Assembly (NCBI RefSeq): GCF_963921235.1
Contig: NC_086097.1
Span: 134,356,001 to 134,420,000, forward strand
DNA length: 64,000 nucleotides
Direction of reading: 5' to 3'
From: Mobula hypostoma
Taxonomy: Eukaryota
The position numbers and the translations under genes are program-made. Shown here piece after piece: positions 1 to 59,466 of the stretch; positions within the stretch are counted from its first letter, which is position 1, and each line of letters begins with the position of its first letter. A model generated the notes under the pieces. It made no database searches. It saw only the letters and a list, made by a program, of their open reading frames with translations, and was not told the origin of the DNA.

Positions 1-3000
1 CAGAGCCTTCCAATATTCAGTGATTTTCATTGAAATACCAACCCTCCCCTGCATTCTTCTGAACTCCCATGAATACAGTCCAGAGCCATCAAACACTCAT
101 TATCCATTAACCTTTACAATCCTGCAGTCATTCTTGTGAGCCTTCTCCAAACCCTCTCCCATACTAGCACACCTTTTCTTAGATATGGGGCACTAAATTT
201 GTCGCAACATGCCAAATACGGTCTTAACAATGCCTTATTAAGCCTCAGCATCATATCCTTATGTAAATGTAAGTAGGAGTCCACGTTACATTCCTCCTGT
301 CTGTAAAGGATCTTTTGTTCCAAATCTCTGCTTTCTATGTGTTAATGAGTTTTCAATCCATGCTAACACACTTCCTCCAAGACCCGTCAATTTTCCCTGT
401 CAAATTGAGAAAATTTGTGAAACATGATTTACCTTTCAAAAAACCATGATGACTCTGATTGTATGTAGCTTTCTTAAATGATTAATTACCTCCTGTTCCA
501 TTATTGACTTGAGTGCCTTGCCAACAACAGATGATAAGCTTACTGGCCTATATTTATCCAACTTCTGTCTTCCTTTTTGGACACAGGAGTCATGATCCAA
601 TTTTCTTGCACAAATCTTCATGTATTTTTCTGGATTTCAGTGAGTTTTGAAAACAAAACAATGAATCCACTATCTCTGCAACCATATTCTTTAAAACCCC
701 TGGATGGAGGCCATCGTATCCCGGTGATTCATCTACCTTTGAACCCTTGTGATTGAGACTTTTGCAGGTTCATCCCTGTTATTTGAAATTAGCCCATTTG
801 TTATATTTCCAGTGACTTTCATAGTAAAAACCGATGCAAAAAATAGTTTAATATATCAGTAATTTATTTTTGTCTTCTGCTATTAATTCATCAGTCTCAT
901 TCGCTAGGAGTCCCACACCAACTTTCCCTCCTTCTTATTATTTATATCCATAGAAACTCTTACAGCTTGTTTTTATTAGATTTAAATTTCCTCTCAAAAT
1001 TAATATTCTCTTCTTAAGAGCTGTTTAGTCTTTCATTGCTAGATCCTAAAAGGTTCCCACTCCTCTGGCCTACCACCAGTCCTTGCCACTTTGTCTGCGC
1101 AGTTTTTCAATGTAAACGTCAACGTCCTTTGTTAACCACAGGTTGTGTTTCTTTCCCATGGAATTCCTCTTACTATTTGGAATAAATTCCTGCCTAGTGT
1201 GATGGATCAGCTATTTGAATATCAACCACTGTTAATCTATTAACCTGTCTCATAATTTATTTTCCCATTCCACCTCAGACAACTTATACCATTATAATTG
1301 CTGTAACTTAAGTTGTAGTCAGTGATTTTGGTCCTGTGGTGTTCAACCTCAAAGTGCACCCAGAATTCTATCTGATTGTGGTCACTACTTCCCCTGGGAT
1401 CTCGAACCACAAGGTCTCTTATTAATCCTTCCTTGTTATTCATGACCAAATCCACAATATATGTTCTCAGCTAAGTTCCATAACTTACTGTTTTAAGAAG
1501 CATTGCTTGATACATCCCACAAACTCTTCTTCTACAATACCTTTGCCAGTTTGGTTTGTCCAATCCATATGAAGATTAAAATCTTCCATGACAATTGTAA
1601 TTCATGTTCTAGGTAGTCCCTCATATATGTCATCCTGTTGAGATATCATGGTTTGTCGGCTTATACATGGCTCACCTCTTTGTCTTCCTTTTCCTGCTAT
1701 TCATGACTCCAACCCTAAAACCATTCTTCATTACTATTCATTGCCTCTATATCATGACTCAACTCCATTCTGATACTTCCCTTGATTAACAACACTAACC
1801 TGCCTCTTTTCACTTTTCACCTGTTCTTTTGGAACATTGGATAACCTAAATTATTGAACACCTAGTCCTAGTTACCTTGTCACTGGGTCTCTGTACCTCT
1901 ATTAATCACACTCTTATTTTACCATCTGTGCTGCCAACTCATCTACCTTATTGTAATACTACATGCATTTTAATAAAGACCATTCAGATTTGATTTTTAT
2001 ATAGCTCTTGCTAACTCCCAATTATTTCAGTGCTGTAGATTTTTGTTTACATTTCCTGCCCCATTTAGTCACACTTTGACAATATCCCCATCACTACTCT
2101 CTGCCACCACTCTCTCATTTCCTCCTGAGTTATTAAACAGCCCGTTCACGAAGACTTCCTTCCTCCTAGTCAGTTGTCTATAACAATAATTTTCAGATTA
2201 GCCGGAATGCTAGCCCCAGCACAGTTCAGGTGAACCCCTTCCCAATGGAATAGCTCTCTCCGTCCCTTGTATTGATGCCAATGTCCCATAAATTGGATCC
2301 CATTTCTACCACGTTTCACTTTGAGCCACACATTTACTTTTCTAATTAGCTAATTTGCACAAGACCTAGGTATTAATCTGGAGATAATCACTCTTGTAGT
2401 TTTGCCTAGACCACTTTATATTCCCTCATCGGAATCTCTTTTCTAGTCCTATCTATGTCAACTGTGTCTATATGGAGAATGAGCATTGGATCCTCCACCA
2501 TCACACCCCCACTTCACGTCTTTCTCTTGGCCAGAAGATAAATCCTTGACCATCATACCAGACAGGCAATGCAGCCTTTGGCTATCCACCTTTGTGAGAG
2601 AAAACACCATCTGTTGTCCCTCGAACTATGCGGTCTCCTTGAAAAATCACATTTCTCTTTTTTTCCTCCCCCCCCCCCCCCCCACCACCACTGTCACTTG
2701 AATGTCTCCCTGTACTATGGTGTTGTGGACAGTTTGCACATCCTCCTCACAGTCTTCACTCTCATCCACACAGGAAGTAGGATCCTTATACCTGTTGGAC
2801 AAGGGGAGGAGCTGAAGCTCCTGCTGAACTACCCTCATGATTGTTAAACGTCTTTCTTCTGCAGTCACACTATCCTGCCCCTAACTATTCAGCAGTTTAC
2901 AGATAATTAATTTAAAACCTTATACCTGTTGGACAAGGGTAAAACTGGGGCCCTTCCACAACCATCCTCAGGATCCTTCTACTTCTCTCTTCTGCAAGCT

Positions 3001-3230
3001 CGCTGTCCTGACTTTGACCATTTGCCAATTTACAGAGGGTCTCTGAGGTGTGACAATCTCCTGGAATCTCATGTCCAGGTGATTCTCTTCCCTGATCTGT
3101 CAGAGTTTGGAGCTAGGACTTCAGCTTATTGATGAGCCAGTAGTTTCTTGAGCAATCACCATTTGCTGCATATGTGGTCACTGTTAACCACAAAGGGGTT
3201 CACTCATCCCCATGTTGCATGCCCAGCCAT
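1..3230 (-). mobile_element. Old, heavily decayed CR1 LINE (ORF1 and ORF2 remnants), running off the left edge
   Basis: Minus-strand fragments RPYLACCDKFSAPYLRK...ERVWRRLTRM (114-323), YRPVSLSSVVGK (436-621) and DLVMNNKEGLIRDLVVRDPRGSSDHN (APE end, 1240-1455). Esterase-like ORF1 remnants lie at about 2200-2600. Confidence 0.75.
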
Positions 3231-4021: not shown

Positions 4022-5690
4022 CCTTCCTTCCTTCCTTGTGCCCTTAACTCCTGCTGGAGTCCTTGGGGCACCGTCATGACAAGCTTTGCACCAGTCTGTT
4101 CCATCTGTCACAGTTGTGTGCCAGAGACTGGGTCATTGCAAATGTTTTCCCTGTCCATTCTTTAATGTTGTCCATCCATCTTTTCCTCTGTCTACCTCTC
4201 CTTCTTTCCCCCTCCACAGTTCCTTGTAGAATGGTCTTTGCAAGGCCACTGGATCTTGTTACGTGGCCGTACCATCTCAGCTTTCTTTTCTTCACCATTG
4301 TAAGAAGGTCTTCATGGGGGCCAACGTGGTGCTGGATGGCCTTGTGGACCTGCTCGTTTGTGATGTGGTCCAAGTAGGAGATGCCCAAAATGTTGTGATA
4401 GCATCTCATTTCCAATGCCTGTATCTTCCTCTGTAGCTCTGCTGTGAGGGTCCATGTCTCACATGTGTACAGGAAGATGGAGAATACCAATGCATGCAGG
4501 AGTCTGATCTTGTACTTTATGGTAATGTTGCTGTCCCTCCACATTGTCTTGAGTTTGGATAGTGCAGTCATTGTCTGTGTGGTTCTTGCCAGGACCTATG
4601 GTCTTGATCCTTCATCACTGATGATTGCCCCCAGGTATTTGAACTGCTGCACCGTCTCAAGTTTCTGACTACGGACTGAGATGTCTGTTGTGATGGCGCC
4701 ATTGACATTTGCCATGAGCTTGGTTTTCTCAGCACTTATTTCCATTCCAAACTTTGTGGAGGCTCTGTCAAGATGGCTGACCAGGTGGGCCAGTTCGTCC
4801 TCTTGTCCTGCAAGTCCATCAATGTCGTCAGCAAATCTTAGGTTTGTGATGTTCCTCCCTCCGATGCTGACTGTGCCCACATGATCTTCAAGTAAACACT
4901 CATGATTCGTTCCAGGAAGACATTGAAGAAAGTGGGGGAGAGGAGGCAGCCCTGACAGACTCCTACAGAAGTATGGAACCACTCCCCGATAGTGCCCTGA
5001 GCGAGCACTGCACTGGTTGCTTTGGCGTAAAGCCGGTGGATTGTATGAATCAGCTTATGCCCCATGTTGAATTTCCTCATGGTGGCCCATAAGGCATCAT
5101 GCCAGACTCTGTCAAACGCCTTCTTGAAGTCTATGAAGACATGGTAGAACTCTCTCTGGTGCTGGAGGTGTTTCTCACAGAGGGTGCAGAGGTTGAAGAT
5201 CTGCTCAGTGGTGCTTTTGCCCTTACAGAAGCCTGCTTGTTCCTCGACAATAATGTCTTCTGCCTGAGGTCTTAGTCTGTTCAAGATGATTCTGAGCATT
5301 ACCTTGCTTACATGGCTGATCAAACTGATGGCACGGTAATTCACAGTGTGCTTGAGGAGAATCAACAAGCCAAAAAACAGCCGGCTGAGATTCGACCTTG
5401 AAAAACTGAAAGACCCCGCCACCTCTGAAGAATTTCAGGTAGCAAATGGGGGGAAGTTTGCACCAATACTCCTCTTTGATGAAGACCTGGAGACCACCAT
5501 AAATAACTTTAACACAGTGATGACGGAAACAGCAAGCAAGATTCTGGGGAAAAGCCACCGCAGGTCTAAACCATGGGTCACTAACAAGATACTGGATATG
5601 TGTGATACAAGAAGGAAATTAAAGAAAGATAAAAACACAGCAGAGGGAAGAACAGAATACAGGAAAATCAACAAGGAAATCAGAAGGGAA
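4022..5690 (-). mobile_element. RTE-clade LINE, 5'-truncated, with inverted 5' segment (5347-5690 on +)
   Basis: RT motifs NYRAISLISHVSKVML, EEQAGF, FIDFKKAFDRV, GVCQGCLLSP and LRFADD; C-terminus KTILQGTVEGERRRGRQRKRW; (GGAA)n tail at 4022. Flanked by atatatttaat (4011-4021) and atgtatttaat (5691-5701). Confidence 0.9.
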
Positions 5691-6059
5691 ATGTATTTAA
5701 TAGGAGGTCAGATAAATATGCCAATGACCGAAGGTCACACTAAAGGAGTTAGATGAAAATGGTGGGAAGTGAAAACACAAGCAAGGATCAGGAGGACCAA
5801 ATGGGCTATTTCCAAACTGTAATGTTGCTGGATTGTAAAAGAAACAAAGGTAGACTTAAGTGTCTGCAGAGGTTTTTAAACATATTTAGACATCAAAAAT
5901 ACTTTAGATCCACTATAATATCTATGAAATCTTACCACTACCATAATGCAGATAACACTATAACACAGCAAGCTCCAACAAACACAGCAAAATGAAAACA
6001 ACCAAATACATTTTTAACAATATTAACAGAATACTATATTTCAGCTATAGCACTGGAGA

Positions 6060-6250
6060 TAACTCATCTTTATTCAAAATAATGCTTTAAGATTTTATCC
6101 CATCCACTCAAGAGAGTAAGTAGGGCCAGTGTAACAATTCATTCAAAAGACAACACCTCCAGGTATGCAACATTCCCTCAGAACTGCATCAGAGCATCAA
6201 CTTCGATCTTTATGCTCAAGTCTCTTGTCTGGGACGTGAACTGACAGCAT
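6060..6250 (-). mobile_element. Deu-SINE (SacSINE1-like) fragment
   Basis: cattccctcagaactgca...tatgctcaagtctc is the reverse complement of the motif seen in the + copy near 32630. Confidence 0.4.
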
Positions 6251-6432
6251 GGCAAATATGTAACTATCTTTCAAAGTCAATGCAGTATCTCCCTGTTAGG
6301 CAGCTCAAGATGTTCCAAAGCTACTTTTTGCTCGGAACTTTGACAGGGGACAGATATGAACAGTTGACTTGATGACAACAGTAAATATCACTGCAAACCC
6401 ACAGCAACTCAGTGAATCATAGCAAAACGTAA

Positions 6433-6585
6433 ACACAAGAGATCCTGCAGATGCTGGAAATCCAGAGCAACACACAAAAAATGTTGGAGGAACTCAGCAG
6501 GTTAGGCAGCATCAATGGCTATTTATTCATTTCCATAGATGCTACCTGACCTGCTGAGTCCCTCCAGCACTTTGTGCATGTTGCT
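6433..6585. mobile_element. Penelope-derived inverted-repeat mini-element
   Basis: tggaggaactcagcaggttaggcagcatc...gatgctacctgacctgctgagtccctcca forms a long hairpin. The same sequence is found at the end of the GIY-YIG element near 55400. Confidence 0.65.
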
Positions 6586-6665
6586 CCGATTCACAGCAAA
6601 ATATAGAGAGGAAGCTACTGTCAAAACATGATAGAGAGAATGTCAGAATCTGAGCGGGTAAATAT

Positions 6666-6837
6666 CAACAAATAAAGTCAAAGGCTGTTAAGCTATCAGT
6701 GAAGAGTTACTGGTAGCGCAAATGTTCTCTTGTTGCTTATTTAACTGTGAGGCTCCATCTTTGGAGCTGATTGTATTAACAAGGCAGGAAATCTGAGTTT
6801 TGCAAACAGAGTGCTTCTATATTGAATTACAGGTAAC
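6666..6837 (+). repeat. Left copy of ~172-bp direct repeat flanking the HERO-like element (putative long TSD)
   Basis: Aligns to 10902-11074 with 13 substitutions and one 1-nt indel by manual count. Confidence 0.92.
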
Positions 6838-6906
6838 TTGCATCATGCCCTGGGATGCTCTCTACAGTTACCTGATGAAGTGACCATAGCCTTGGCCAAG
6901 ATCAGA

Positions 6907-6976
6907 TTGTCAGGTGGTGCCCAACCTTCGTAGAGTGTTTTGACCCTTTACCACTACACTGTCTAGTTGGTGGGTC
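6907..6976 (-). ncRNA. Candidate hammerhead-like pseudoknotted RNA in the HERO 3' UTR (core degenerate in this copy)
   Basis: Four helices: gaccc/gggtc, ccaact/ggttgg, agtgt/acact and gtggt/accac. A GTA triplet, cAAAAC (~GAAAC) and CTGACAA (~CUGANGA) sit in hammerhead register. Confidence 0.45.
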
Positions 6977-8273
6977 AACAGTGGTGGCCAAGTCACTGCC
7001 CATCTACTCCTGACTCCCAGCTCAACTCCTCTCGCCTGCTCCATATCCAGCAAAAGGCTCTTTCTGCTTCCTCCACAATCCTTTGAGCTGCTTGGTTCTT
7101 GCTCTTATCATTAAGACCCAGCGCAGACAGCAACCTCCATGCCAAACTTGCTGGGAACACTGTAAGGCTGATCTCCACAGGGAAAAACCACGTCTGCAAT
7201 CCTTTGTCCTTGCACCCCAGGACTAAGGACTGGTAATTCAGGGCCTACCTCTCCTGAGCCTCCTTGCATCCTTCATCCCATGGTACTGTGAGCTTCACCA
7301 GGATGATTTTCTTGCTTTTGGTGGTCCACAGTACAATGTCTAGTCAAAGTGTGCTTCCCACATCGACCCTCATCTCCCATGATTTCTCAGTTTGCTGCAG
7401 GTTGGATTCAGGCCTCTTTGATATGACTGGTGTGGCCCTCTGCTTGATGAAAATGACTATCCTGTCTGCCAGTTAGTTCATTTTCACTCCTCTCCCACTT
7501 CAGTGTGTCAGCAAGGGATAGCTGGACCTTGTCGTGGCACCACCTATACCATCCTTGTGTTAAAGCTGTTTTACATTCTGACAGTGTGTGTGCCAGCAAA
7601 CCCCAATGACCAAAAAGCTTACAGTTAGGGTCTTCTCTTAGCCCCCATGTGTGCAGCTGTGATGGTGTACGGAGAGTGTCATACATGGACCACAGGAGGA
7701 GAGAAATCCAGAAGGGCTCCAATCTCCAAAGCTCTGCCCAAGTGATCTTACGCTTGGGAAGATCCCATTTTGTCTAGCCACCCTGTGACCCCAACTCCAT
7801 TGCCTTCAATACCCACCTTTCATTCTCACGGTTCCATACCTCTGCCTGGACCATGTCACGCCTACCACTTGCACTTGCACTCCCCCATCGTTGAAAGTGT
7901 GCTGAACTAAGGCCTTGTCGTCCCAGGCGTGAGTTGTCAATGATGTCTCTCAGTTGCAGGGAGCTCACTGCCTGATCAATGGCCGAGCTGGCGGCCCACT
8001 TTCATCTGATCTTGTTGTGATTCCTGCTTGGTTTATTGGCTTGTCATTGGAGCCCCAGTGTTAAGACAACTCTACACTTTGCCACCTTGAACTCCTCCAC
8101 TACTGATAACAATGGGAGCTGTAGCTGGTCTGATCTTATGTAGAGGCTCACTGAAGAAAAACTTGGGGGGATCCCCAGCCACCCCCACAGGTGCTTGTTA
8201 ACTTTCCTCAATGCCTTCTACAGTGGTCATACAGAACTCATACACCGTGAAAAGCCAGAGCAGCCTTGGTAGT

Positions 8274-8822
8274 AAAACACACAAAATGCTGGAGGAACTC
8301 CACAGGCCAGGCAGTATCTATGGGAGTACAGTCGACATTTCAGGCTGAGACAGGTGTGGGGAGGGGAGGGAGAAACACAAGGTGATAGGTAAAACCAGAA
8401 GGGGGAGAGGGAGAGGTGAAGTAATGAGCTGGGAAGTTGATTGAAGAAAGAGGATCAGGGCTGGAGAAGGGGAAATCTAATAGGAGAGGACAGGAGGCCA
8501 TGGAAGAAAGAAAGGGGAGGAAGAGCTCCCAGAGGGAGGTGATGGGCAGGCAAGGAGATAAAAGGGGTGGGGGAATTGGGGGGGGGGGCATTACCGGAAG
8601 TTCGAGAAATCAGTGTTTATGCCATCAGGTTGGAGGCTACCCAGACAAATATAAGGTGTTGTTCCTTCAGCCTGAGTGTGGCCTCATTGCAAAAGTAGAG
8701 GAGGCCATGGATAGACATATCGGAATGGGAATGGGAAGTGGAATTAAAATGGATGGTCCTCCAGCATATTGTGTGCATTGCTTAGCTTTCTAGCATCTGC
8801 AGATTTTCTCTTGTTTGTGATT
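8274..8822 (-). mobile_element. Penelope-like 3' fragment with inverted terminal repeat, nested in the HERO RT/thumb region
   Basis: Reverse-complement match to 54960-55425. Flanked by gcagccttggt (8260-8270) and gcagacttggt (8823-8833). Host reading TWLYQHG|LPRLLW resumes across it. Confidence 0.75.
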
Positions 8823-10654
8823 GCAGACTTGGTTGACCATGTTGGTACAGCCATGTCTTAAATTTATCAGGAAGTCCAGTTTCGTCGGTCTTCTTCAGCC
8901 ATTCTTTGGTCTGCTTTAGTGTCAGAGATGTTGGTGCTGTCTGTCGTTGCTGCATTAAACCACTTTCTAAGACACTACTGGGTTGTCCTCTATGAATGGA
9001 ATGACTTCTCCCTGTACTTGAAGACTGAACTTGCTACTAAACTTGCCCTTTTACATCACCATGCATCTGGACTTCCTAGCCTTGAAGGTCATCCTAGCCC
9101 ATATAGCTACGTTGTCCAGGGTTTCCAATACCTATCTTGCTTGGACATAGGTTACAGTGGTTACTGTGATGTCATCCACAACCCCCACCACCGACTATTG
9201 CAGGCTGTCTAATGCTGGGCTTCAACACTGGGCCTCATGTTACGTCTGCTGCTGCTGATATGAGAAGGTTCATACCCATGACAAACAAGATGAGGGAGAT
9301 GGTGCCGCCGGCTGGAATCCTTTTCTGGAGGTCTTGCCACCTGGTTGTAAAGTGGGCTGAAGTGATGTGTAGCTTGAATCCTCTTAGGTAGCTGGTGATC
9401 ATGTCTCGTGTTACTGGTAGGATATAGTAGTGGATGAGGACATGTGGAATTGATCTGCAGGCACTGGCTAGGTCTAACCAGACAATTACTAGTTCATCTT
9501 TCTTCTGCTTGGCCTTGCGGATCAATTGGCTGATTACTGAGGTGTGTTCAAGGCACCCAGAAAAACTCGGAATGTCACCTTTCTGGATGGATGTGTTGAT
9601 ATAGTGGTACTCCATTAAGTGCCTTCTCGCAAACACCGAGAAGAATATCTTGCACACCATGCTAGGGAGGGAGATTGTCCTAAACTGGGTGATTGTAGAG
9701 GAATCTTCTTCCTTGAGAACAAAGCATCCTTCAGCTATTTTCCAGCTTGGTGGGATACCTAGAGCCTTTAGTCCAAATCTTCCTCATTATCTTCCACAAC
9801 CTCCGGAGGAGTTTTGAGCATTTCTCACATACCTTTTGGTCCTGGGGTGCGGATAACTTTGCTCTCTTGAAGATATCCTAGACCTTCTGCCACGTTCAAC
9901 TCAGTTTCTGGGATTTGGAGGACTGTTGGAATTGAATTCTAGTCCCTGATTCCGATGGGGATCACTGTCTGATTCCCACAGAAATTCTTCCACCTCCTGC
10001 TTTGAGCTGGTTAGGGTGTCAGACTTTTGCTGGCTGAGAAGAGCCTTGGTGAACCTGAATCGGTTTTTAACAAACTGCATTCTCCTCTCTTTCTCCCTTC
10101 TTCGCACAGCTGTCCCACAATTTGCTGGTCAGATCTTCAATACCTGCTTTTTCATCAGGCGAACTGCTTTTGAATTGTTTGTTCAGGGTCTTACCTTGCT
10201 TCTCAGCTGGTGAATCTCCCTTTCTTTCCTATTTGGTTGCTATGATGGTTTAAGATTCCCTTTCTTCTCCATTGGGCCGAATCGCTCTAGCAAAGTTGAA
10301 CACAACGGCTGTGAGGGAGTTGATTTATCTGTAGACAGGTCCTGCCAGGGTAGCTTCGAAGATCCAATCCAGGTCATCATCAAACTGCCGCCAAGATACA
10401 TTGTCCAATCCTCTCTTTCCTTGAAGAATGGAATAGGGTGTCAGAAGAGGCTCTTGGTCTCTTCTTTGGCACTGGGGCAGCTCAGGTGCGGAGAGATCTT
10501 CAGTTCTGTGGGGTGCTTCCTGGCTGGGGTTCTCCATTGTCTCACCAGATGTTGAATCCACGTGTTGCACCTGAATTGCCTTCATTCCACAGTTGGACCT
10601 GCTATGGTGTATCTTGAGGCCTTTGATGTTTTCACAGATTTTGCCGCAATGGCA

Positions 10655-10841
10655 TAAGAACATAAGAAATAGGAGCAGGAGTAGGCCATCTGGCTCGTCA
10701 AGCCTGTTCCATCATTCAATAAGATCATGGCTGATCTAGCCATGGAGTCATCATCTCCACCTATCTGCCTCTCCCCATAACCCTTCGTTCCCCTACTATG
10801 TAAAAATCTATCCAACCTTGTCTTAAATATATTTACTGAAC
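10655..10841 (-). mobile_element. CR1 3'-end fragment nested in the HERO zinc finger
   Basis: taagaacataagaaataggagcaggagtaggcc is the CR1 tail, as at 19078. TSD atggca at 10649-10654 and 10842-10847. Confidence 0.85.
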
Positions 10842-10901
10842 ATGGCACTTTGCAATGAATGCCTCCCCAGTCACTGTTGTTTGCTTGAGCCTTCTCGTTA
10901 C

Positions 10902-11074
10902 CAATAAATAAAGTCAAAGGCTGTTAAGTTTTCAATGAAGAGCTACTGGCAGCACTGAATGTTCTCTTGTTGCTTATTTATCTGTGAGGCTTCATCTTTG
11001 GAGCTGATTGTATTAACAAGGCAGGAAATCTGGGTTTTGTAAACAGAGCGCTTCTATATTGAATTACAGGTAAC
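10902..11074 (+). repeat. Right copy of ~172-bp direct repeat
   Basis: Matches 6666-6837; both copies end in ...gaattacaggtaac. Confidence 0.92.
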
Positions 11075-19077: not shown

Positions 19078-21906
19078 AGAAACATAGAAAGTAGGTGCAG
19101 GAGTAGGCCATTCGGCCCTTCGAGCCTGCACCGCCATTTATTATGATCATGGCTGATCATCCAACTCAGAACCCCGCCCCAGCCTTCCCTCCATACCCCC
19201 TGACCCCCGTAGCCACAAGGGCCATACCTAACGCCCTCTTAAATATAGCCAATGAACTGGCCTCAACTGTTTCCTGTGGCAGAGAATTCCACAGATTCAC
19301 CACTCTCTGTGTGAAGAAGTTTTTCCTAATCTCGGTCCTAAAAGGCTTCCCCTCTATCCTCAAATGGTGGCCCCTCGTTCTGGACTTCCCCAACATCGGG
19401 AACAATCTTCCTGCATCTAGCCTGTCCAATCCCTTTAGGATCTTATACGTTTCAATCAGATCCCCCCTCAATCTTCTAAATTCCAACGAGTACAAGCCCA
19501 GTTCATCCAGTCTTTCTTCATATGAAAGACCTGCCATCCCAGGAATCAATCTGGTGAACCTTCTTTGTACTCCCTCTATGGCAAAGATGTCTTTCCTCAG
19601 ATTAGGGGACCAAAACTGCACACAATACTCCAGGTGTGGCCTCACCAAGGCCTTGTACAACTGCAGTAGTACCTCCCTGCTCCTGTACTCGAATCCTCTC
19701 GCTATAAATGCCAGCATACCATTCGCCTTTTTCACCGCCTGCTGTACCTGCATGCCCACTTTCAATGACTGGTGTATAATGACACCCAGGTCTCGTTGCA
19801 CCTCCCCTTTTCCTAATCGGCCACCATTCAGATAATAATCTGTTTTCCTATTTTTGCCACCAAAGTGGATAACTTCACATTTATCCACATTAAATTGCAT
19901 CTGCCATGAATTTGCCCACTCACTCAACCTATCCAAGTCAACCTGCATCCTCTTAGCATCCTCCTCACTGCTAACACTGCCACCCAGCTTCGTGTCATCC
20001 GCAAACTTGGAGATGCTGCATTTAATTCCCTCATCCAAGTCATTAATATATATTGTAAACAACTGGGGTCCCAGCACTGAGCCTTGCGGTACCCCACTAG
20101 TCACCGCCTGCCATTCTGAAAAGGTTCCGTTTGTTCCCACTCTTTGCTTCCTGTCTGCTAACCAATTCTCCACCCACACCAATACCTTACCCCCAATACC
20201 ATGTGCTTTAAGTTTGCACACTAATCTCCTGTGTGGGACCTTGTCAAATGCCTTTTGAAAATCCAAATATACCACATCCACTGGTTCTCCCCTATCCACT
20301 CTACTAGTTACATCCTCAAAAAATTCTATGAGATTCGTCAGACATGATTTTCCTTTCACAAATCCATGCTGACTTTGTCCGATCATTTCACCGCTTTCCA
20401 AATGTGCTGTTATCACATCCTTGATAACTGACTCCAGCAGTTTCCCCACCACCGACGTTAGGCTAACCGGTCTATAATTCCCCGGTTTCTCTCTCCCTCC
20501 TTTTTTAAAAAGTGGGGTTACATTAGCCACCCTCCAATCCTCAGGAACTAGTCCAGAATCTAACGAGTTTTGAAAAATTATCACTAATGCATCCACTATT
20601 TCTTGGGCTACTTCCTGAAGCACTCTAGGATGCAGACCATCTGGCCCTGGGGATTTATCTGCCTTCAATCCCTTCAATTTACCTAACACCACTTCCCTAC
20701 TAACATGTATTTCGCTCAGTTCCTCCATCTCACTGGACCCTCTGACCCTTACTATTTCTGGAAGATTATTTATGTCCTCCTTAGTGAAGACAGAACCAAA
20801 GTAATTATTCAATTGGTCTGCCATGTCCTTGCTCCCCATAATCAATTCACCTGTTTCTGTCTGCAGGGGACCTACATTTGTCTTTACCAGTCTTTTCCTT
20901 TTTACATATCTATAAAAGCTTTTACAGTCCGTTTTTATGTTCCCTGCCAGTTTTCTCTCATAATCTTTTTTCCCCTTCCTAATTAAGCCCTTTGTCCTCC
21001 TCTGCTGAACTCTGAATTTCTCCCAGTCCTCAGGTGAGCCACTTTCTCTGGCTAATTTGTATGCTTCTTCTTTGGAATTGATACTATCCCTAATTTCTCT
21101 TGTCAGTCACGGGTGCACTACCTTCCTTGATTTATTCTTTTGCCAAACTGGGATGAACAATTGTAGTTCATCCATGCAACCTTTAAATGCTTGCCATTGC
21201 ATATCCACCGTCAATCCTTTAAGTGTCATTTGCCAGTCTATCTTAGCTAATTCACGTCTCATACCTTCAAAGTTACCCCTCTTTAAGTTCAGAACCTTTG
21301 TTTCTGAATTAACTATGTCACTCTCCATCTTAATGAAGAATTCCACCATATTATGGTCACTCTTACCCAAGGGGCCTCTCACGACAAGATCACTAATTAA
21401 CCCTTCCTCTTTGCTCAAAACCCAGTCCAGAATAGCCTGCTCTCTAGTTGGTTCCTCGACATGTTGGTTCAAAAAACCATCCCGCATACATTCCAAGAAA
21501 TCCTCTTCCTCAGCACCTTTACCAATTTGGTTCACCCAGTCTACATGTAGATTGAAGTCACCCATTATAACTGCTGTTCCTTTATTACACACATTTCTAA
21601 TTTCCTGTTTAATACCATCTCCGACCTCACTACTACTGTTAGGTGGCCTGTACACAACTCCCACCAGCGTCTTCTGCCCCTTAGTGTTACGCAGCTCTAC
21701 CCATATCGATTCCACATCTTCCCGGCTTATGTCCTTCCTTTCTATTGCGTTAATCTCTCCTTTAACCAGCAACGCCACCCCACCTCCCCTTCCTTCATGT
21801 CTATCCCTCCTGAATATTGAATATCCCTGAACGTTGAGCTCCCATCCCTGGTCACCCTGGAGCCATGTCTCTGTGATCCCAACTATATCATAATCATTAA
21901 TAACAA
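19078..21906 (-). mobile_element. Young CR1 LINE, ORF2 nearly complete, 5'-truncated in the APE domain
   Basis: 277-aa APE ORF (GITETW, GDFN, SDH) is in frame with the 559-aa RT ORF (YLDFQKAFDKV, GVPQGSVLGP, FADD). (TTTCTATG) tail at 19078. Confidence 0.96.
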
Positions 21907-22825
21907 TGATGACTTTCTTAGTCTTCTTCATGTAAAGCATTGTTTTTAAATGATTTTGTGTTCAACTCTTCTATAAAATGTACTTTTTAAAAAAATTCTC
22001 AGCCTGCAAGTGGCTCCAGTCATTTTGAAATGTTATTAAACTCATATAATAACATCCAAAAAAACACGCTATTTACCCTTACAAAAAAAAACGGTGAAGT
22101 CAACAGAACCAAAGTTTGGAACTGGAGTTCAATGTGAAAAGTTAATATATTGCACATAGCTCAGCAATGACTAGTGTCATTGTAGAGTGTGACTTTCCTC
22201 TCCAATTGTTCTAATTATTGCTGACCGATTTCAATTACATCCTAGAGCACTGTAGGATCACACCTCCCTTCATTAATGTCCATTATAGATGCCTATTCCA
22301 ATAGTAATATTGCACAAATAGAAAAAAAAGGAGACATATTAGATTGATTTGCTCTTTCAAATCCATGTAAAGCAACAAATGAACTGTAGGTTTTATGGAT
22401 TCACAGTAGGGGTGCAGAGATAGCCTGGTGGAAACAATGAGCGAATTTATGTTCTTACCTAAAGTCCAGTTCTAAAACATCAACAGAAAGATCAGTGATA
22501 TCCCATCATGTTGTATACATAGGAAAAGTATAGGATTTCCAGTCCTGAAAGATCACTTCACAATGTCCAAATTTTGATCATTAAATTCCATATGCAAATA
22601 TAGCTTCAAACATAAGATGTACCTTTAGTCCCCATTTTCTTTGAATACAATTTTGTGTATTTGTTATAAATACGGGGAAGGAGGTAGGTTAAGGGCACTT
22701 GTCTGGGCCAGGCTATTAAAGGGGAAAGGTGAAATGAATTGTCATCCAACAACAAACCCAACTCAGTCTGTATCAGGAACACTGAAAAGCTGAAGCTTTA
22801 GTACTTTGAGAAAGGTCAATCTTAC

Positions 22826-23004
22826 CCGCGTGGAGATATGCCAGATCTGGATTCTCAATATCAGGATGAAGCTCCTTGAGATGGTTCCGAAATTCTAATG
22901 GTACGTTGGTTCCATACTCGCACTTTGGACAATTGTACATCAGAACACCCTCATGTTTGCCCGTATGCAGGATGTGCTTCCGAATATTCTCTGCACAGTT
23001 TGAT
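22826..23004 (-). CDS. ZNF407: Internal coding exon of zinc finger protein 407 (end of one C2H2 finger plus the final finger of the C-terminal array)
   Basis: Encodes (R)SNCAENIRKHILHTGKHEGVLMYNCPKCEYGTNVPLEFRNHLKELHPDIENPDLAYLHA(G), recognised as ZNF407. Acceptor cttAG at 23006-23005 with an upstream pyrimidine tract; donor GTAAG at 22825-22821. Length 179 nt = 1 nt + 59 codons + 1 nt. Confidence 0.9.
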
Positions 23005-57864: not shown

Positions 57865-59466
57865 CAGTGGCATGCAAAAGTTTGGGCACCCCTGGTCAAA
57901 ATTTCTGTTACTGTGAATAACTAAGCGAGTAAAAGACGACCTGATTTCCAAAAGGCATAAAGTTAAAGATGACACATTTCTTTAATATTTTAAGCAAGAT
58001 TACTTTTTTATTTCCATCTTTTACAGTTTCAAAATAACAAAAAAGGAAAAGGGCCCAAAGCAAAAGTCCCTGCATGGTCAGTACTTAGTAACACCCCCTT
58101 TGGCAAGTATCACAGCTTGTAAACGCTTTCTGTACCCAGCTAAGAGTCTTTCAATTCTTGTTTGGGTTTTTTTTGCCATTCTTCCCTGCAAAAGGCTTCT
58201 AGTTCTGTGAGATTCTTGGGCTGTCTTGCATGCACTGCTCTTTTGAGGTCTATCTACAGATCTTTGATGATGTTTAGGTCGAGGGACTGTGAGGGCCATG
58301 GCAAAACCTTCAGCTTGTGCCTCTTGAGGTAGTCCATTGTGGATTTTGAGGTGTGTTTAGGATCATTATCCTGTTGTAGAAGCCATCCCCTTTTCATCTT
58401 CAGCTTTTTTACAGATGGTGTGATGTTTGCTTCCAGAATTTGCTGGTATCTAATTAAATTCATTCTTCCCTCTAGCAGTGAAATGTTCCCCATGCCACTG
58501 GCTGCAGCACAAGCCCAAAGCATGATTGATCCACCCCCGTGCTTAACAGTTGGAGAGGTGTTCTTTTCATGAAATTCTGCACCCTTTTTTCTCCAAACAT
58601 ACCTTTGCTCATTGCAGCCAAAAAGTTCTATTTTAACTTGATCAGTCCACAGGACTTGTTTCCAAAATGCATCAGGCTTGTTTAGATATTCCTTTGCAAA
58701 CTTCTGATGCTGAATTTTGTGGTGAGGATGCAGGAAAGGTTTTCTTCTGATGATTCTTCCATGATGGTCATATTTGTGCAGGTGTTGCTGCACAGTAGAA
58801 CAGTGCACCACCACTCCAGAGTCTGCTAAATCTTCCTGAAGGTCTTTTGCAGTCAAACGGGAGTTTTGATTTGCCTTTTTAGCAATCCTATGAGCAGTTC
58901 TCCTGGAAAGTTTTCTTGGTCTTCCAGATATCAACTTGACCTCCACTGTTCCTGTTAACTCTCACTTCTTAATTACATTACAAACCGAGGAAACGGCTAC
59001 CTGATTACGCTTTGCTATCTTCTTATAGCCTTCTCCTGCATTGTGGGCATCATTTATTTTAATTTTCAGAGTGTTAGGCAGCTGCTTAGAGGAGTCCATG
59101 GCTGCTGATTGGAGGGACAAGGTTTGAGGAGTCAGGGTATTTATAAAACTTTGAAATTTGCATCACCTGGCCTTTCCTAACGATAACTGTGAACAAGCCA
59201 TAGCCCTAACAAGCTAATTAAGGTCTGAGACCTTGGTAAAAGTTATCTGGGAGCTCAAATCTCTTGGGGTGCCCAAACTTTTGCACGGTACTCCTTTCTT
59301 TCCTTTCACTCTAAAATTGTACAAAACAAAAATAATACACTAATCTTGCTTAAAATGTTGTAAAGAATGTTTCATCTTTAACTTTATGACTTTTGGAGAT
59401 CAGTTCATCTTCTACTCACTTAACTAGTCACAGCAATTTTGACCAGGGGTGCCCAAACTTTTGCAT
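57865..59466 (-). mobile_element. Tc1/mariner (IR/DR) transposon with disrupted transposase, inserted into a Rex1 3' tail
   Basis: TA|cagtggcatgcaaaagtttgggcacccctggtc ... gaccaggggtgcccaaacttttgcat. Inner DR at about 59266. ORF 58254-58946 contains GRPRK, WTDQ, VKHGGGSIMLW, QDNDPKH and WPSQSLDLNII. Confidence 0.93.

Follow-up and report, generated by a model that had tools for sequence, protein, structure and literature searches.

We analysed a window of 64,000 nucleotides from the ray Mobula hypostoma (contig NC_086097.1, positions 134,356,001 to 134,420,000 of the forward strand; positions below are those of the window), in which a decayed HERO-like retrotransposon lacking long terminal repeats (non-LTR), with a restriction-like endonuclease (RLE), lies between two direct repeats of about 175 bp. 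The repeat is duplicated low-copy host DNA and not part of the element, and it very probably arose at insertion, by whatever route. Our preferred reading, to which we give a probability of roughly 60%, is a long target-site duplication of one insertion, with the second break at a distant host nick and not set by a rule of the family. A long target-site duplication is the best reading because low-copy host DNA brackets the element, as indicated by read depth and by the lack of any match in 82 related loci. The outcome itself is known, and the site is a further instance of it.

Global alignment of 6666-6837 with 10902-11074 gives 159 identical positions out of 172, with 13 substitutions and one indel, exactly the coordinates and counts of a preliminary description of this window; blastn of the two copies returns 176 columns at 91.5% identity (E 2e-66). 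The repeat can be extended to 6663 and 10899 at the cost of one further mismatch, which puts its length at 172-175 bp. Within the 64-kb window there is neither a third copy nor another direct repeat of like length and identity. The 14 differences between the copies appeared clustered (9/56 in the first 56 columns against 5/117; Fisher p 0.014), a pattern that we rejected as non-significant once the scanning of the breakpoint was taken into account (p 0.11). Rfam returned no family in the repeat, and its four weak hits all fall on a palindromic SINE (short interspersed element) at 6481-6578. This high-copy SINE-like element occupies 6431-6598, 65 bp left of the repeat, with a 77% inverted match and a depth of about one million.

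Between the repeats, alignments of homologous proteins tile the minus strand from 10901 to 6996, interrupted by stops, frameshifts and two nested insertions (Table 1), and the broken frames cover one homologue of 1,155 amino acids from residue 55 to its end. The domain layout comprises one C2H2 finger, a reverse transcriptase, a zinc knuckle and the RLE region; in the element's open reading frame (ORF) Pfam matches RVT_1 and zf-RVT and no APE domain, and the best structure matches of the element profile are to R2 (E 3e-43). Conserved columns of the PD...E...K type in the homologue alignment, which we take to be the PD-(D/E)xK restriction-like endonuclease motif, are spanned by the element, decayed as it is (23 of 102 invariant residues are changed). 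A frame of 181 amino acids at 9235-9780 (minus) has 78 homologous proteins, the best from fish and the lancelet Branchiostoma at 60-65% identity. The single N-terminal C2H2 finger, found in the homologues and in the window element, is a HERO-like trait. We presume the element to be HERO from its domain layout, the host range of its homologues and the preliminary description; the label is an assumption because no labelled HERO reference sequence was available for a reverse-transcriptase tree. At the element flanks, where a ribosomal DNA (rDNA) or small nuclear RNA target might appear, Rfam gave no match above its gathering score.

Both junctions of the element fall 0-3 nt from the repeat ends. 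At the 5' junction protein homology reaches 10901/10898, with the alignments to homologues P0003 and P0001 beginning right there from residues 55 and 64, and DNA homology to the related locus L001 starts at 10899. At the other end, alignment of the 3' untranslated region (UTR) with relatives runs down to about 6838, and the TGTAT-type motif found there also closes the relatives; the tail has neither poly(A) nor tandem repeats. The abutment of the repeats on both element ends and the lack of such a tail, both reported in the preliminary description, are thus borne out, the first by protein, DNA and 3' UTR alignments and the second at the 3' end. That description was silent on truncation: the element is cut short within its ORF and lacks its 5' UTR along with 54 or more homologous codons, and about 1 nt is common to repeat and element at the 5' junction (microhomology). 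By sequence comparison the repeat does not appear to encode the missing N-terminus, and set against the N-termini of the 78 homologous proteins it gave no credible match (best E 0.001, low identity). The 3' UTR also contains the boxes GAAAC and CTGATGA (6890-6960, minus), shared with L001-L003, L005, L008 and L015, which resemble a hammerhead core in permuted order; Rfam returned nothing for this region, nor any family in six related loci.

A search of public sequencing runs gave 19 rows, 16 of them with all or part of the stretch, from four organisms. We took depth from four runs (organisms A and B, and two from one sample of organism C), placing a bin edge at 6837/6838 and using three unique flank bins as reference; contigs mapped at likeness 80 came to some 170,000-180,000 records in each run and were largely SINE. 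Runs of organism D, with a share of 0.05-0.06, form no part of the evidence. The repeat bin has depths of 15.4, 31.2, 20.3 and 20.9, with unique flank bins at 16-24 and the adjacent element bin at 2562-3040. Relative to the flanks the repeat therefore stands at 0.86, 1.60, 0.91 and 0.96, and the adjacent 3' UTR bin at 115-166 times. Because the repeat is at single-copy depth where the element next to it is at more than a hundred times that, we assign it to the host. It is also unmatched in all 82 related loci (best E 0.12), so that the question raised in the preliminary description, whether the 172-mer belongs to the ends of the element, is answered in favour of host DNA by four of four runs and by every locus. 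The lowest element bins are at 15-24 times flank depth, and the family therefore has at least tens of copies; in these rays it is present in tens to hundreds of dispersed copies.

The preliminary description had also proposed that the long duplication could be a property of the whole family. The 82 relatives consist of 79 metagenome loci and three short genome-contig fragments; among viral contigs, eight stretches were considered and none was confirmed as a relative. From 16 loci chosen by eye for both flanks, one had no recognisable 3' motif and four had less than 300 bp on one side, which left 11 distant insertions with at least 300 bp of both flanks. Nine of these have no duplication, L071 has one of about 31 bp and L003 is ambiguous; a clean duplication of more than 50 bp occurs in none of the 11, and the same flank script recovered the repeat of the window. 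The proposal thus finds no support among these loci, which are relatives and not the ray family itself, and the mixture of nine without duplication and one of about 31 bp fits a variable second break. We take this as evidence of moderate strength against a fixed long stagger in HERO-like elements, and as no stronger because short-read contigs may break at long duplications or fuse flanks that come from different copies, and the placement of some junctions is rough.

In L071 the 31-32 bp duplication (543-573 and 1598-1629) stands at both junctions of a truncated HERO-like copy; non-LTR duplications are usually 5-20 bp. In L003 the HERO-like copy is embedded in a coding 60-bp minisatellite, and next to it is a 1.9-kb duplication (994-2903 and 5406-7315, 98.9% identical), which begins inside what is presumably piggyBac-like sequence and has its breakpoint about 190 bp from the element end, not at it. 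L078, outside the 16, carries an exact 63-bp repeat at the contig start (1-63) and about 600 bp past the ORF (4277-4339), which may be part of a long UTR, an array or a cut long duplication. Head-to-tail order is common among the relatives (L001, L002, L004, L005, L008, L010, L012, L014, L015, L023, L068 and L069), with a conserved 5' start motif about 14-17 nt (eight, by eye) after the 3' terminal motif, and circular permutation is seen in many contigs. The pattern suggests that tandem arrays or circles are a common state of the clade, perhaps through self-targeting or template jumping, with the caveat of short-read collapse. Two short HERO-like fragments, L080 and L081, are 99.7% identical in assemblies of two unrelated marine bacteria and are probably shared eukaryotic contamination.

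On the state of the empty site the other organisms give indirect hints only. Organism B shows 7 differences in 603 flank letters and organism C 36 in 517. A contig of organism B stops at about 6775, 57 nt right of 6718; the convergence of two copies is predicted at 6774, and depth is 1.6-fold. Together these are an indirect sign of both repeat copies. In organism C, at single-copy depth, one contig continues without a break through 6718 and at least 161 nt to its left and right. With two repeat copies of such likeness a contig would still pass in about 31 of 100 cases, and the unbroken contig is a weak hint that C has one repeat copy. A further contig, X1, equals the left flank at 650 of 650 letters. 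The two repeat copies in the window differ by 7.6%, near the distance between organisms A and C; they are old, as is the element.

Several observations weigh against a long target-site duplication of a single insertion. Organism A, the nearest to the window, has a depth ratio of 0.86 where two copies are expected, and we therefore rejected depth as a counter of repeat copies. Among the contig pieces listed, none bridges either junction, and the tables are swamped by SINEs, nearly all of the joints, loose ends and pieces in them being SINE or distant copies. L003 and L078 carry the unexplained flanking duplications described above, and the relatives are distant, mostly invertebrate-type short-read contigs from metagenomes, which are prone to losing long duplications. 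Finally, the element seems older than the repeat. Non-CpG change per site is 0.069 (95% confidence interval 0.04-0.11) at invariant residues of the element and 0.093 (0.069-0.123) at 223 element sites conserved at 90%, compared with 0.038 (0.02-0.065) per repeat copy; the first interval overlaps that of the repeat and the second does not. Family-specific residues, the difference in GC (47-50% in the element versus 38% in the repeat) or gene conversion could be the source of this gap.

We hypothesize that the insertion took place by target-primed reverse transcription, as one event from the long tail of duplication lengths. The RLE protein would have nicked one strand at 6837/6838, and the element RNA would have been reverse-transcribed from its 3' end, halting some 55-65 codons into the ORF. 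The second break would lie about 175 bp away on the other strand, at what was probably a pre-existing or repair-made host nick and not a programmed cut of the element. The end of the complementary DNA (cDNA) could then have joined the distant break through the microhomology of about 1 nt, and fill-in would have left the 175 bp copied on both sides. Of the interpretation in the preliminary description, the long target-site duplication stands as the best reading, supported by depth and by the 82 loci; the link to the length of one nucleosome is not supported, because a single length gives no period and says nothing on nucleosomes, and published long duplications span 50 bp to kilobases. The first bases of the repeat also resemble the linker of L002 over 7 nt, by which microhomology priming is conceivable; it concerns one distant relative only and is not used here.

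A template switch is an unlikely alternative. The truncated cDNA end would have moved 175 bp downstream, to the sister chromatid or to a replication fork, and would have copied back through the insertion site without a distant nick. The 5' truncation and the 1-nt microhomology agree with it, as do zebrafish LINEs (long interspersed elements) with 5' extra sequence copied from their flanks (PMC4245944). Neither junction has filler bases or a rearrangement, which speaks against it, although the final sequence would be the same for a template switch and a distant nick.

It is doubtful that the duplication reflects a rule of the HERO family in rays, by which these RLE-only elements without a fixed target would routinely make the second break 100-200 bp away, in the manner of the fixed stagger of R9 and perhaps at the next nucleosome linker, so that most copies, at tens to hundreds of sites, would duplicate 100-200 bp of host DNA. 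R9 proves that a fixed stagger of 126 bp is possible for an RLE element, at least tens of copies of the family in these rays could be carriers, and such a rule could have escaped notice, a published survey having limited target-site duplications to 49 bp (PMC13295347). However, none of the 11 distant relatives has a clean duplication above 50 bp; the long duplications described for Dualen, L1 and R2 mutants vary in length and none is fixed, and our literature search gave no link between such duplications and nucleosome length. If the rule held, this RLE-only, non-site-specific family would be the first of its kind to have a long stagger built in, overlooked by surveys that limit duplications to about 50 bp, and its copies would form a natural data set on second-strand opening, with lengths that could be tested against nucleosome spacing.

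We give little credence to two independent events, whether a prior 175-bp tandem duplication at whose junction the element landed or a later duplication at the edge of the element. The excess of element decay over repeat divergence favours this, and L003 offers a HERO-like copy beside a duplication with its breakpoint about 190 bp from the element end. It would need a chance insertion or breakpoint within 0-3 nt of a unit boundary, the unbroken contig in organism C hints weakly at a single copy there, and the age gap can be accounted for by gene conversion or the GC differences. That the repeat is part of the element, as a terminal repeat, a 3' extension or the remnant of a head-to-tail array, is very improbable: the arrays of the relatives can mimic terminal repeats, yet their linker is about 15 nt and not 175, and the single-copy depth and the 82 unmatched loci stand against it; a 3' transduction in this copy alone would be compatible with the depth but would leave the copy on the 5' side unexplained. 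An assembly artefact, for which the lack of a bridging piece might be cited, deserves almost no weight given 14 differences between the copies, far above assembly error, the X1 contig and the indirect signs of two copies in organism B.

Table 1. Features at the insertion site and in the neighbouring host gene, in window positions
Feature	Positions	Strand	Evidence or remark
Repeat copy at element 3' end	6663..6837	.	Low-copy host DNA; 6666-6837 in the preliminary description
Decayed, 5'-truncated HERO-like RLE non-LTR element	6838..10901	-	First base 10899-10901
3' UTR with TGTAT-type terminal motif, without poly(A)	6838..6992	-	Aligns to 3' UTRs of L001, L002, L003, L026
C-terminal ORF part: end of reverse-transcriptase region, zinc knuckle (zf-RVT), RLE region, stop codon	6993..8275	-	
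Nested high-copy SINE/LINE-tail insertion splitting the ORF	8276..8835	.	Gap in tblastn cover; depth >100,000
N-terminal and reverse-transcriptase part of the broken ORF	8836..10654	-	RVT_1 hit; homologous proteins
Nested high-copy insertion inside zinc-finger codons	10655..10841	.	Own 6-bp duplication
Outermost 20 codons at the 5' truncation, immediately upstream of the C2H2 finger	10842..10901	-	P0003 residues 55-74, P0001 residues 64-82
Repeat copy at element 5' junction	10899..11074	.	10902-11074 in the preliminary description
Coding exon of C2H2 zinc-finger gene	22826..23004	-	AG...GT ends

The nested insertion at 10655-10841 is presumably a CR1-type tail. The exon belongs to a gene that we take to be ZNF407, the Atlas having given C2H2 clusters only and no gene name. 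Its strand suggests that the element is in sense orientation to the host gene, if the site lies inside that gene. Should the site be in an intron of this gene, the second break would fall on the sense strand, as the authors of a study of R2 speculate for breaks in transcribed DNA (PMC13486585); the chance of such agreement is 1 in 2, and we attach little weight to it. Elsewhere in the window a decayed LINE bearing a reverse transcriptase, which we assume to be RTE-like, occupies 4074-5756 and has parts on both strands, suggesting an internal inversion. A near-intact CR1-type ORF2 lies at 19166-21961 (minus), as open frames of 646 and 284 amino acids with one stop between them, and a Tc1-like transposon at 57872-59466 has long terminal inverted repeats and a transposase frame of 235 amino acids.

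The site bears on the way in which non-LTR elements open the second DNA strand. As a single event it adds one more example only; as a natural, germline-fixed case of 175 bp it would indicate that what nicking-deficient R2 produces in cells has a counterpart in a vertebrate in nature. The HERO clade is described as RLE-bearing and mostly non-site-specific, in fish, lancelet and sea urchin (PMC4640811, PMC9004415), and the best homologues here likewise come from fish and Branchiostoma. We found no long duplication at a HERO element in the literature searched, which has most subscription papers and Repbase reports outside its scope, and the accessible part of PMC7650587 has nothing on HERO duplications. 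For duplications as such, a range up to several hundred nucleotides is stated in PMC1291365.

Among known systems, up to 10% of L1 insertions in HeLa have duplications above 100 bp; these dominate in repair-deficient cells, and kilobase sizes prevail when nucleotide excision repair is lacking (PMC5223499). These sporadic events around 5'-truncated insertions resemble ours, with the difference that L1 is an APE-type element and the cells are cultured. Rte-1 of Caenorhabditis elegans, a case that our literature search did not return, is flanked by a 200-bp direct repeat, so that there too a natural LINE copy has direct repeats of similar length on its two sides; it belongs to the RTE clade and has an APE endonuclease. 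Avian R2 leaves heterogeneous duplications of about 1 kb when its second-strand nicking is weak or the protein level is low (PMC13486585). It shares with our element an RLE-only protein and a long duplication when the second break arises elsewhere, and it differs in being a matter of engineered mutants or low protein in human cells, at a fixed rDNA target and at about 1 kb. For Dualen-4b_cRei of Chlamydomonas, more than half of new insertions have duplications above 50 bp, with a median of 900 bp, described as considerably longer than those of R9 (PMC9977147). Dualen is a LINE with an RLE domain whose insertions have host sequence duplicated on both sides, as here, but it has an APE endonuclease too and is known from many de novo insertions, whereas we have one old copy with no APE region. 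R9 of bdelloid rotifers has a stagger of 126 bp (PMC6895275, PMC9977147, PMC13486585), which the preliminary description held to be exceptional; it is no record, because the duplications of Dualen, R2 and L1 are longer. R9 and the element of the window are both RLE non-LTR elements with a duplication of more than 100 bp, but R9 is R2-derived, rDNA-specific and fixed at 126 bp, whereas the present insertion is HERO-like, lies in unique, presumably intronic DNA and is one case of about 175 bp.

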